A stretch of DNA of 63,070 nucleotides, filler included, from Collodictyon triciliatum (Eukaryota), in NCBI GenBank assembly GCA_043381765.1. It is 18 parts of 18 records of this genome, joined end to end, with 100 filler letters (N's around TTAATTAATTAA, not from the genome) between each part and the next. Parts side by side here need not be neighbours in the genome. Positions count along the whole stretch, not along the records: positions 40,017 to 43,247 come from JBHJMP010007608.1; 17 more parts are not named here. One strand, given 5' to 3'. Each line of letters starts with the position of its first letter. The stretch's first letter is position 1. This document shows positions 41,409 to 43,247 of the stretch, piece by piece. The notes under the pieces were generated by a model, which was given only the letters and a program-made list of their open reading frames with translations, was not told the origin of the DNA and did not search any database. The position numbers and the translations under genes were made by a program.

Positions 41409-43247
41409 ATGAGACTGAACTCGAAGTATTTTGCAGCTCTGTTGCTTTTGGGTGAGTTTTACATTTTAATTGTTTACATTTTCTTGATTTCAAATTTAAT
41501 AGAATTTTAACTGAAATATTTTTAGGATTGATGCTCCACTGCCAATTTTGTCTTGTTGAAGGGCAAGATGATTCGATTCGCACATTGACTGGTCATACTA
41601 GTGGTGTTTCCAGTGTTGCTGTTACTCCTGATGGTTCAAAAATTGTTTCTGGAAGTTATGATTATACAGTCAAAATCTGGAATGTTTCTGATGGAACTTT
41701 GAATCGCACATTGACCGACCATACTAGTTATGTTATGAGTGTTATTGTTACTCCTGATGGTTCAAAAATTGTTTCTGGAAGTTATCAAGAAATCAAAATA
41801 TGGAATCTTTCTGATGGAACTTTGATTCACACATTAACAGGTCATACTCAATATGTTACCCGTGTTGCTGTTACTCCTGATGGTGCAAAAATTGTGTCGG
41901 GAAGCTATGATAATACAATCAAAATCTGGAATCTTTCTGATGGAGCTTTGATTCGCACATTGAGTGGTCATACTAGCAGTATTTACAGTGTTGCTGTTAC
42001 TCCTGATGGTTCAAAAATTGTCTCTGGAAGTGGTGATGCTACAATCAAAATCTGGAATCTTTCTGACTATACATTGATTCGCACATTGAGTGGTCATACT
42101 AGCAGTATTTACAGTGTTGCTGTTACTCCTGATGGTTCAAAAATTGTCTCTGGAAGTGGTGATGCTATAATCAACATATGGAATCTTTCTGATGGAGCAT
42201 TGATTCGCACATTGACTGGTCATACTAGCAGTATTTACAGTGTTGCTGTTACTCCTGATGGTTCAAAAATTGTTTCTGGAAGTAATGATAAAACAATCAA
42301 GATTTGGAATCTTTCTGATGGAGCTTTGATTCGCACATTGACTGGCCATACTTGGGATGTTAACAGTATTGCTGTCACTCCTGATAGCTCAAAAATTGTC
42401 TCTGGAAGTGGTGATGCTACAATCAAAATCTGGGGACTTTGTGTCGCTGGTCAGTTTTATGATTCAGTTTCAAAGTCTTGTAAAATATGCTCATCCGGGA
42501 GCTATAGCGCCGCAGGAATGTCATCTTGTTCTTTATGTCCTGCCGGTACATACAACCCATCAAATGGTTCTACGAGTGTTGGTGCCTGTCTTTCATGTGC
42601 AGCTGGTACATATAACCCATTAAATGGTTCTACAAACTCAACCATGTGTATTTCATGCGCAGTTGGAACATACAATCCATTTACTGGTCAAGAAACCTGT
42701 CTTTCATGTGCAGCTGGAACATACAACCCATCTACTGGTTCTACAAGTGTTGGTGCCTGCATTTTTTGCCAAGAAGGGAAATATAACAACAAAACTGGAC
42801 AATCATCGTGCCATAATTGCGAACCAGGAACATATAGTCCTTCAAAAGGACAGATATCGTGTTTTGAATGCCCATTAGGTTTCTACAATCAAGAATCAGG
42901 AAAAACATTTTGCACACCATGCGGCCCAGGAACGTATTCTAATTCGACAAAAGGGAAATCTTGCGAAAAATGCCCAGCCGGTTCCTACAACCCAGATGTT
43001 GCATCAACCAGTGTAAATAACTGTCTGCCATGTGCTCAAGGAAGATACTCATCAAAATCAGGTGAATCAACATGCGATATTTGTCAATCTGGTTCTTACA
43101 ATGCAAACCTTGGTCAAACTGGGTGCACTAATTGTACTGATGGAACTTACAATCCGCGATTTGCTTCAACAAGCAACAAATCATGTGTGCAATGCCCGCA
43201 AGGAACGTATGGTAATGAACAAAGAGATGAATGTGTATCGTGCCCAG
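41409..43247 (+). CDS. Secreted/surface protein: signal peptide + 7 near-identical WD40 repeats + Cys-rich GCC2/GCC3-like repeats, 3' partial
   Basis: Exon 1 MRLNSKYFAALLLL(G)|gtgagt splices to LMLHCQFCLVEG-QDD. Seven ~42-aa GH..WD-type repeats at ~41576-42435 are followed by CxxCPAGTYN repeats to the contig end. Confidence 0.88.

Follow-up and report, generated by a model that had tools for sequence, protein, structure and literature searches.

Gene organization and predicted signal peptide

The window analysed here, 63,070 nucleotides from Collodictyon triciliatum, is a chain of unrelated contigs of ~3.2 kb joined by N/TTAATTAATTAA spacers, with 17 spacers and 19 pieces longer than 100 nt over its whole length. 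One 3.2-kb contig (positions 40017–43247, with Ns from 43248) carries on its plus strand the 5′ part of a gene that encodes an N-terminal hydrophobic segment, seven WD40 repeats and a cysteine-rich stalk; the frame is still open at the contig end, 43247, and is cut there inside the stalk. No overlap of this contig end with other contigs of the window was found, no paralogue of the gene was found elsewhere in the window, and an Rfam search of the whole window gave 0 matches. The 5′ flank (40017–41408) is AT-rich (GC 0.23) and has no convincing open reading frame, the longest stop-to-stop frame being 76 aa.

The start codon at 41409 is preceded, two codons upstream, by an in-frame TAA. Exon 1 (41409–41451, plus strand), 14 codons and one base long, encodes the n-region of a putative signal peptide together with the beginning of its hydrophobic core. 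It would be followed by a 74-nt phase 1 intron (41452–41525, plus strand), predicted from the sequence and from relatives, which opens with GTGAGT, ends with TTTTTAG, has a branch-like TTAAC motif 17 nt before the AG and shows a GC content of 0.18 versus 0.42 in exon 1. Read-through of the intron meets a stop after 33 codons, and splicing places the ATG-initiated hydrophobic exon in phase with the WD40 frame, which continues from 41526 in phase 1. The spliced protein contains an Arg and a Lys within its first six residues and a best 15-residue Kyte-Doolittle window of 2.23, starting at residue 11. The rest of the signal peptide (41526–41563, plus strand) would extend to a likely cleavage site with small residues at −3/−1, just before Q-D-D; the peptide was judged by hydropathy and the site by our own reading of the −3/−1 rule. 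The original prediction of a spliced signal peptide ahead of the WD40 repeats agrees with an ATG exon followed by a predicted GT-AG intron. Since the ATG is immediately preceded by an acceptor-like TTTAG, there may be a further exon upstream.

Metagenomic relatives carry 1- and 2-nt insertions or deletions within the intron, at 41457, 41468 and 41513. The level of divergence was not informative in this respect: counting the differences listed, exon 1 differs by ~16% and the intron by ~12%, which gives no contrast in conservation. Eukaryotic signs are the predicted intron, a 1.4-kb flank with a GC of 0.23 and a frame of 573 codons without in-frame TAA or TAG. If the contig instead came from a prokaryote or a giant virus and held an intronless bacterial-type gene for an exported WD40 protein, the first possible starts of the unspliced frame would be the in-frame TTG at 41528 and ATG at 41531, leaving it without a signal peptide, and 1.4 kb at such a low GC without an open reading frame would be odd.

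The seven-bladed WD40 propeller

The segment 41564–42433 (plus strand) encodes a closed seven-bladed WD40 propeller. Pfam WD40 (PF00400) was matched in seven stretches with an E-value of 4.6e-75 (245.3 bits against a cut-off of 27), and the repeats start at 41579, 41705, 41828, 41954, 42080, 42206 and 42332, in agreement with the count of exactly seven given at the outset. TRF detected a period of 126 with 6.8 copies and 85% matches. The repeats had been described as ~126 bp long and nearly identical in DNA; the length holds, but with pairwise identities of 0.78–0.94, the upper value being reached only by repeats 4 and 5, the wording was too strong. The GH dipeptide is present in six of the seven repeats (DH in repeat 2) and the Trp in all seven; the residue next to the Trp is Asn in six repeats and Gly in one, and in no repeat is it Asp.

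The AlphaFold2 model of residues 1–313 (pLDDT 94.2, pTM 0.90) has seven blades with the strands in groups of four, and its N-terminal strand 18–21 provides strand d of the last blade and closes the propeller. The best PDB matches in Foldseek are seven-bladed WD40 proteins, namely 7big_A, 2ymu_A, 5yzv, LIS1 and WDR5, with TMq of 0.88–0.90; the best of them, 7big_A, superimposes with a TMq of 0.90 and an rmsd of 0.7 at 48% identity. A protein atlas returned only generic WD40 clusters with scores ≤0.84, which we take as leads only. Cys is absent between residues 9 and 304 of the protein (P0001), and the blades are without disulfides; as 7 of the 27 other aligned relatives also lack Cys here, this trait is not distinctive. 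The data support the assignment of the module as a canonical WD40 propeller of high internal conservation.

A related protein from metagenomic data

One clear relative, L001 (P0242), was found by scanning 241 million metagenome records with six 8-residue patterns. It is 73% identical to the present protein over residues 14–304 and is itself complete, with 773 aa and a terminal TAA. The two proteins have in common the predicted signal peptide, a DDSI motif before the first strand, the seven blades, the variable codons and the sequon after the Trp described below. They differ in that the hydrophobic N-terminus of L001 (19-aa Kyte-Doolittle window of 2.61), located at the same spot, is unspliced, with no intron in the signal peptide, and in that a long Ser-Gln linker followed by FG-GAP_2 repeats (E 1.3e-25) takes the place of the stalk. 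The L001 protein has no exact match in the protein collection, and its FG-GAP part gave matches all of ≤31% identity, none of them with WD40.

This contiguous signal peptide supports the predicted routing of the WD40 protein into the secretory pathway. The original proposal that the WD40 module is routed to the cell surface gains support as to export and goes too far for a surface receptor: L001 has no hydrophobic segment beyond its N-terminus, so that the word receptor is not warranted. Members of the family may be secreted as soluble proteins instead of being anchored at the surface.

Pieces 85–90% alike were found in two metagenome runs, and four DNA runs contained 5–9% of the sampled words. 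With L001, these pieces indicate at least a small family, as had been supposed. The metagenome contigs are mostly ~150 nt long, and the joints between repeats and the sequence differences seen in them may therefore reflect cross-mapping.

A sequon after the Trp of six blades

One N-x-S sequon, NVS or NLS, directly follows the Trp in blades 1–6 (repeat positions 35–37; 41579–42331, plus strand), exactly as first reported, and lies at the end of strand c and in the c-d loop according to DSSP of the model. The same position is occupied in six of the seven blades of L001, compared with 8 of the 179 blades of the other 27 aligned relatives. The post-Trp sequon is therefore specific to the family of this gene and L001 (12/14 versus 8/179 blades). 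Total sequon numbers were discarded as evidence: the 14 sequons of the whole protein fall within the range of shuffled sequences (mean 8.0, maximum 17), and the 7 of L001 are below its shuffle mean of 8.9.

Variable codons on the predicted top face

Both variable tracts, the one behind GHT and the one behind SGS, are exactly as originally reported. As in HET-D and HET-E of Podospora anserina, highly conserved repeats carry two variable codon pairs that lie 18 codons apart and each flank a conserved residue. The variable codons 7, 9, 25 and 27 of HET-D/HET-E, as given in PMC1805685, correspond to positions 9, 11, 27 and 29 in the present numbering, by spacing and flanking conserved residues. 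DSSP of the model locates the variable codons in the b-c turn, in the d-a loop and where strand a begins; combined with textbook WD40 topology, this would place them on the top face of the propeller, in keeping with the predicted parallel to HET-D/HET-E.

The four HET-E-equivalent codons account for 109.5 of the 277.5 nonsynonymous pair differences between the repeats of this gene, a share equalled by random sets of 4 of the 42 sites in 4 of 100,000 draws, and for 121.2 of 238.8 in L001 (2 of 100,000 draws). Computed on four codons and non-independent repeat pairs, dN/dS at these positions is 17 in this gene and 2.9 in L001, compared with 0.45 and 0.40 elsewhere. Blades 1–3 and 7 differ at every hotspot position. 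Blades 4–6 share their d-a loop residues, which makes the face less diversified than these statistics suggest, and G-D-A recurs in the b-c turn of three of the seven blades.

The 14 repeats of this gene and L001 split 7/7 by gene, with support of 100/99, and not by blade position; repeat position 15, for example, is Val in 7/7 repeats here and Ile in 7/7 repeats of L001. The repeats of HET-D/HET-E likewise group by origin rather than by position, according to PMC1805685. Independent amplification in each gene would produce the same by-gene tree. The dS of ~0.2 between repeats indicates that homogenisation was not very recent.

According to PMC5587647, highly repetitive WD40 proteins in general show diversity at hotspot codons within otherwise uniform repeats, and such diversity is by itself no sign of non-self recognition. 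Of the proposed diversifying module for non-self or prey recognition, the HET-D/E-like codon pattern stands, and the recognition role loses its force to the extent that this pattern is generic.

The cysteine-rich stalk and its junction with the propeller

The propeller is followed by a cysteine-rich stalk (42434–43247, plus strand), which adjoins the last Trp without a linker. The CxxC repeats originally noted after the propeller match Pfam Ephrin_rec_like (PF07699) in eight stretches, with an E-value of 2.7e-37 (126.7 bits against a cut-off of 23.1), and comprise 15 CxxC motifs between residues 318 and 572, spaced by 14–20 residues. Among the nearest stalk relatives, P0122 and P0123 have PF07699 arrays followed by membrane regions, as read by eye; among the matches listed, the best ones of the stalk are ≤45% identical.

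None of the proteins and loci compared combines the two halves. PF00400 was not seen among the 120 listed matches of the stalk region, and a whole-query search, in the 315–1003 aa range, returned multi-WD40 proteins only. When both halves were compared by phmmer with 391 proteins, 254 had WD40, 137 were Cys-rich and 0 had both; tblastn of the stalk against 163 compared loci gave no match. In a scan covering 1.84 billion representatives, the 150 entries listed were giant repeat proteins. The match lists are dominated by many-repeat proteins and may hide a modest-scoring relative, so that they do not establish absence from public data. Within this scope and as predicted from the sequence, a seven-bladed WD40 propeller with an export signal and a cysteine-rich stalk is an unusual design for a surface protein.

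Comparison with known systems

Canonical eukaryotic WD40 propellers are commonly treated as intracellular scaffolds. In a phrase search of a paper collection, extracellular or secreted WD40 turned up only for the CRINKLY4 ectodomain and for predicted cyanobacterial orthocaspases. HET-D and HET-E themselves are cytosolic HET-NACHT-WD40 proteins, whereas here a Cys-rich stalk comes after the propeller. Only ~30 residues, corresponding to the predicted signal peptide, precede the first blade here and in L001, which leaves no room for a NACHT domain, and no HET or NACHT family is present among the best 25 of 55 Pfam matches of this gene. The repeats of HET-D/HET-E reach up to 100% identity, in contrast to 78–94% in DNA here, and incompatibility activity requires at least 10 of them according to PMC1805685, compared with seven in both this gene and L001.

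The closest sequences, with 58–61% identity, are cyanobacterial single-pass Ser/Thr kinases with a C-terminal seven-bladed WD40 domain (P0042, P0048, P0092 and P0073). By crude hydropathy, each of these four (58–60% identity) has one TM-like segment between kinase and WD40, 13–37 residues before the latter, and the WD40 domain is therefore probably outside the cytoplasm. A hydrophobic segment lies ≤80 aa before the WD40 domain in 27 of the 120 best matches, and an N-terminal one precedes it in 12 of the 120. On these predictions, prokaryotes already have WD40 domains located outside the cytoplasm. The closest folds (TMq 0.88–0.90) are likewise solved, highly repetitive prokaryotic WD40s, namely 2YMU and PkwA 5YZV, and the WRAP-T designs derived from such proteins. 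The prokaryotic proteins differ from the present one in that they share their chain with a kinase, caspase or STAND partner, have no Ephrin_rec_like stalk and rarely carry the post-Trp sequon.

In plants, the CRINKLY4 kinases (ACR4, PpCR4) resemble the present protein in their N-terminal seven-bladed propeller closely followed by a Cys-rich domain. Their ectodomain, as described in bioRxiv 10.1101/2020.08.10.245050, consists of a propeller that the authors call WD40 and that is the functional part, and of a TNFR-like Cys-rich domain, and it bears N-glycans. The same source reports one disulfide per blade, a pore-filling N-terminal strand, and BLIP-II and UVR8 as nearest structures. The blades here are without Cys and match canonical PF00400, the nearest structures are true WD40s, and the N-terminal strand is part of the last blade. 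In addition, CR4 has one compact Cys-rich domain that leads into a TM segment and a kinase, whereas a long CxxC array runs here to the contig end.

The best matches of the stalk (up to 45% identity) are protist and metagenome proteins that likewise pair a propeller with a PF07699 array, among them P0124 from Carpediemonas (named ‘Galactose oxidase, central domain’), P0150 (‘RCC1 repeat/ephrin receptor-like’), and P0129 and P0139 (both ‘sugar lactone lactonase YvrE’). Their propellers differ, being of the Kelch, RCC1 or NHL/SGL type by their source names and by Pfam accessions whose family names we in part presume. In P0129, moreover, the propeller comes after the first Ephrin_rec_like array, not before it.

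Proposed architecture and alternative explanations

On balance, we consider it probable that the locus holds the 5′ part of a gene for an exported binding protein of an AT-rich eukaryote with the standard genetic code, with the following anatomy. A cleavable signal peptide, split by the 74-nt intron, would send the chain into the ER and leave a mature N-terminus a few residues ahead of the closed propeller's first strand. Once past strand c of the last blade, the chain would emerge on the bottom face and pass straight into the disulfide-rich CxxC stalk, so that the top face, with the d-a loops (repeat positions 8, 9 and 11) and the b-c turns (27 and 29), would point away from the stalk. At these five positions, blade-specific residues rich in Tyr, Ser, Gly, Asn and Asp would form the ligand-binding surface, and as many as six N-glycans would ring the opposite rim. 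Repeat duplication or conversion would keep the blades alike while the top-face codons differ. Most likely, the propeller would serve as a head for adhesion or recognition, carried by a stalk at the cell surface, and a small family would combine the same head with different C-terminal modules, the stalk here and the FG-GAP propeller in L001.

A multigene family of variable receptors, encoded in the germline and displayed at the surface, with diversifying selection on the top-face codons and blades shuffled between copies to yield a repertoire against prey, microbes or non-self, is the strongest of the alternatives, though unlikely. Besides the four codons shared with HET-D/E and the grouping of repeats by gene, pieces from runs X1 and X4 are 85–95% alike over the non-repeated 5′ region, with at least two variants in X4, and among the 14 in-repeat differences listed (107 more being unlisted) 7 are nonsynonymous, 6 of these 7 mapping by hand to positions 8, 11, 27 and 29. 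Several joints between different repeats occur in metagenome contigs. In such short contigs, however, differences and joints can stem from repeat cross-mapping or from other species, and the generic nature of the hotspot pattern, the single clear relative recovered with the six patterns, the dS of ~0.2 and the lack of a paralogue within the window all count against a shuffled repertoire.

Several beta-propeller lectins have highly similar blades. The protein could accordingly be a multivalent propeller lectin or agglutinin, in which near-identical blades with similar small sites bind repetitive glycans on microbes or on the organism's own coat and similarity is kept for multivalency rather than by shuffling; we give this fewer chances than the variable repertoire. 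The likeness of blades 4–6 in the d-a loop, the recurrent G-D-A turn, sites rich in Tyr, Ser, Asn and Asp, and the pairing of the head with an FG-GAP_2 propeller in L001 agree with it. The hotspot positions of blades 1–3 and 7 do not, and we know of no canonical WD40 that acts as a lectin.

It is improbable that the gene encodes no working exported protein, being an assembly chimera of a WD40 and a Cys-rich gene, a fragment of a pseudogene, or a gene for a WD40 protein of the cytosol whose ‘signal peptide’ arises by chance from the gene model. The contig is only 3.2 kb long, in a fragmented assembly with many repeats, and no contig of another dataset bridges the true junction with at least 31 letters on both sides, record 26 of X4 having only 14 on the WD side. 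Conversely, the frame is kept across the junction, GC3 is alike on either side (0.22 in the WD40 part, 0.25 in the stalk), and an X1 contig joins the end of a WD repeat to 42436, at the stalk start, with 37 letters on the shorter side. The 573 codons contain no stop or frameshift, pieces with 0–1 differences occur in four independent runs, and L001 independently has a signal peptide before the same propeller.

A prokaryotic or giant-virus origin is the least credible reading, since, although cyanobacteria supply the best matches to the WD40 part (up to 61%) and some of the matches carry the N-terminal hydrophobic segment mentioned above, PF07699 also occurs in a few archaeal or bacterial proteins (Poseidoniaceae archaeon, Acidimicrobiales bacterium) and WD40 genes exist in giant-virus MAGs, no locus exceeds 61% identity in the genomes of 185,579 prokaryote species, the stalk is found in 0 of the 163 compared loci, and the 3 viral-contig loci are all ≤43% identical.

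Biological implications

In fungi and bacteria, highly repetitive WD40 modules are used by NLR-like intracellular receptors and by membrane kinases. If the preferred reading of an exported binding protein is right and the gene is expressed and its product exported, the WD40 fold would tolerate the eukaryotic secretory pathway without blade disulfides, with a per-blade glycan sequon fixed on the face opposite the binding surface, and one head would have been joined to two or more different modules of extracellular type; the fold might also offer a new scaffold for engineered binders. The protein would then be a case of an intracellular or bacterial sensor module recruited to the eukaryotic cell surface. 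More speculatively, and in our estimate doubtful, the module may have become the head of an exported family in which conversion swaps blades and the codons of the top face diversify, which would give a freshwater eukaryote an extracellular, germline-encoded variable repertoire built on a propeller and not on Ig, LRR or lectin folds.

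Contig context and gene model

The window gene (41409–43247, + strand) lies on a contig at 40017–43247 (+) and runs past its end at 43247. The window strings together distinct contigs of a fragmented assembly and is not a single locus, since 17 occurrences of TTAATTAATTAA between N runs (pattern search of positions 1–63070) split it into pieces whose lengths fall from 3239 to 3227 nt, sorted longest first; "genes" that stand side by side in it are thus not neighbors in a genome. The GC content varies by contig from 0.30 to 0.44, and the contigs may originate from more than one organism. 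Homopolymers A74 (43348–43421) and T117 (46461–46577) are found at contig ends and a 226-nt TTATTA microsatellite at 43839–44064, features typical of the break points of short-read assemblies. The contig at 59844–63070 carries an exact 121-nt direct repeat at both ends (59844–59964 and 62950–63070), which makes it a probable 3106-bp circle; a protein encoded on it has a VapE-like domain (PF05272, E 4.1e-60), as found in small replicons resembling those of phages or plasmids. On another contig, two long open frames, 10144–11886 (−, 581 codons) and 12331–13248 (+, 306 codons, ending in a Pro/Gln-rich tract), match no Pfam family at E 0.001. Fragments of a tyrosinase central domain (7910–8593, +, E 2.2e-17) and of a sulfotransferase domain (25618–26268, +, E 1.4e-08) are ordinary eukaryote-like genes on separate contigs, with no bearing on the window gene.

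The predicted spliced gene model for a signal peptide reads as originally proposed: the ATG at 41409 (+), with an in-frame TAA two codons 5′, opens a 43-nt exon 1, which is directly followed by a 74-nt intron (GTGAGT...TTTTTAG, GC 0.18) and by an exon 2 starting at 41526 in matching phase and open for 573 codons in the standard code. Unspliced, the exon 1 frame would end at a stop after 33 codons, and the earliest start codons of the WD40 frame would be the in-frame TTG (41528) and ATG (41531).

Several observations bear on the unity of the gene and on its host. The WD40 part and the stalk have GC3 values of 0.22 and 0.25, respectively, and a contig from the metagenome run X1 joins the end of a WD repeat to the stalk at the first stalk base, 42436, its shorter side being 37 letters long. 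Four metagenome runs, two from freshwater, one from aquaculture, and one from the subsurface, contain pieces with 0–1 differences from the gene contig. Further pieces, 85 to 90% alike, in X1 and a second run, X4, cover the region from the 5′ flank through exon 1 and the intron up to and including the first repeat. Among the 12 indel rows listed, 7 fall in the 5′ flank or intron, each of 1–2 nt, and the 5 in the coding part sum to +3 twice. None of the prokaryote genome loci exceeds 61% identity, and none of the viral contigs exceeds 43%. The intron, the low-GC 5′ flank (1.4 kb, GC 0.23), and the absence of in-frame TAA/TAG point to a eukaryotic host using the standard code.

Propeller fold and repeat variation

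Pfam detects exactly seven WD40 repeats (E 4.6e-75), as first described, followed by eight Ephrin_rec_like stretches (E 2.7e-37). The 126-nt period claimed for the repeats was recovered (TRF, 6.8 copies, 85% matches); their near identity was not, as a DNA identity of 78 to 94% makes them "highly conserved". An AlphaFold2 model of residues 1–313 (29-row alignment) has a pLDDT of 94.2 and a pTM of 0.90 and is predicted to form seven four-stranded blades, the N-terminal strand completing the last one. In the PDB, the model comes closest to the 7-bladed WRAP-T designs (TMq 0.90, r.m.s. deviation 0.7 Å, 48% identity); other top matches are the "highly repetitive propeller" 2YMU, PkwA of Thermomonospora, LIS1, and WDR5.

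DSSP analysis of the model assigns repeat positions 5–9 to the d-a loop, 10–15 to strand a, 27–29 to the b-c turn, and 36–40 to the c-d loop. In WD40 topology, the d-a loop and b-c turn form the top face and the c-d loop belongs to the bottom face. The variable tracts read as claimed, as does the N-x-S sequon that follows the Trp in repeats 1–6, and the variable sites would share one face, at the d-a loop and b-c turn. The chain would exit the last blade at the bottom face; therefore, the stalk should present the top face outward, with the sequons ringing the opposite rim.

According to Paoletti et al. (PMC1805685), codons 7, 9, 25, and 27 of the Podospora anserina HET-D/HET-E repeats are positively selected, each pair flanking a conserved residue; matched by spacing and flanks, they correspond to positions 9, 11, 27, and 29 here. 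These four codons hold 109.5 of the 277.5 nonsynonymous pair differences in the window gene and 121.2 of 238.8 in its sole close relative found, encoded by the metagenome contig L001, shares reached by 4 and 2, respectively, of 100,000 random draws of 4 of the 42 sites. The dN/dS is 17 at the four codons versus 0.45 at the other 38 in the window gene, and 2.9 versus 0.40 in L001; ratios taken over four codons are noisy, and the repeat pairs are nonindependent. Positions 35–42 of each last repeat were excluded from these counts, a one-codon gap was placed in window repeat 2, and a four-codon insert was cut from L001 repeat 6. The tree of the 14 repeats splits by gene (support 100/99), and at position 15, every window repeat has Val and every L001 repeat has Ile. 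Grouping by origin is read as a signature of concerted evolution for HET-D/E by the same authors (PMC1805685); independent amplification in each gene would produce the same picture.

Predicted export and the relative L001

The spliced N terminus has an Arg and a Lys within its first six residues, a hydrophobic core (15-residue Kyte–Doolittle peak of 2.23 at residue 11), and small residues preceding Q-D-D. The best support for export of the putative protein comes from L001, a 2.4-kb contig encoding a complete 773-residue protein whose propeller is 73% identical to that of the window gene. Its hydrophobic N terminus, uninterrupted by an intron, is the only hydrophobic segment of the protein. Both proteins have seven blades and, ahead of the first strand, a DDSI motif, and six L001 blades carry the W-N-L-S sequon; past the propeller, L001 leads through a Ser-Gln linker into FG-GAP_2 repeats and stops at a TAA. 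Of the 14 blades in the two proteins, 12 carry the post-Trp sequon, versus 8 of 179 in 27 other aligned relatives, an alignment for which 34 of 80 loci were taken, with a match length fitting one propeller, and 6 with in-frame stops were dropped.

To our knowledge, the Ephrin_rec_like family is extracellular in every characterized case. P0122 and P0123, the nearest database relatives of the stalk, have membrane regions after the arrays, as read by eye. In the window, 3340–6576 (+) is a single 1078-codon frame that runs off both contig ends and consists of Ephrin_rec_like repeats throughout (24 stretches, E 8.8e-171), arranged as a long, almost regular super-repeat, with 27 to 37% identity to the window-gene stalk; it may be a further surface protein of the same organism, and no overlap between the two contigs was found.

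WD40 propeller and stalk in one protein

No protein or locus was found to combine WD40 and Ephrin_rec_like: PF00400 is absent from the best 120 stalk matches, none of the 391 database proteins compared matches both halves, and the stalk is missing from all 163 loci searched, which is no proof of absence because giant repeat proteins dominate the match lists. In the best stalk matches, Ephrin_rec_like arrays are joined to propellers of other kinds, which the source records call Kelch/galactose-oxidase, RCC1, or YvrE-like. The nearest described design is the plant CRINKLY4 ectodomain, in which a seven-bladed propeller (bioRxiv 10.1101/2020.08.10.245050) precedes a Cys-rich domain; that propeller has a disulfide in every blade and resembles BLIP-II and UVR8.

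WD40 outside the cytoplasm and the nature of the proposed binding face

The original prediction saw a HET-D/E-like module routed to the surface as a variable receptor. The repeat conservation and the hotspot codons agree with it; the specificity for non-self does not follow, because uniformity broken only at predicted interaction hotspots is general among highly repetitive WD40 repeats, a young, repetitive kind making up about 20% of prokaryotic WD40 proteins (Hu et al., PMC5587647). The pattern would be the mark of a binding face, not of non-self recognition, and we regard a variable receptor as unlikely.

The four closest database proteins (58–60% identity) are cyanobacterial Ser/Thr kinases (P0042, P0048, P0092, and P0073), each with a single TM-like segment 13–37 residues before a 7-blade WD40; together with locus L084, they suggest a periplasmic WD40 sensor domain. 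By a crude 19-residue hydropathy criterion (≥1.8), 27 of the best 120 matches have a TM-like segment at most 80 residues before WD40, 12 of them N-terminal. The WD40 of some cyanobacterial orthocaspases is also predicted to be extracellular (review, PMC7475262). Taken together, these cases make WD40 outside the cytoplasm an existing theme in prokaryotes. The metagenome contig L067 (1076–2032, GC 0.27) shows a short hydrophobic N terminus, its Met 24 residues upstream, directly before a 7-blade WD40 that is 44 to 45% identical to that of the window gene and lacks the sequon; it may derive from a eukaryote or low-GC bacterium and encode an exported WD40 protein that is more distantly related.

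The window propeller may have descended from a prokaryotic extracytoplasmic WD40. On balance, we lean toward an exported binding head of the canonical WD40 type, carried on a Cys-rich stalk and belonging to a small family whose C-terminal modules are exchangeable.
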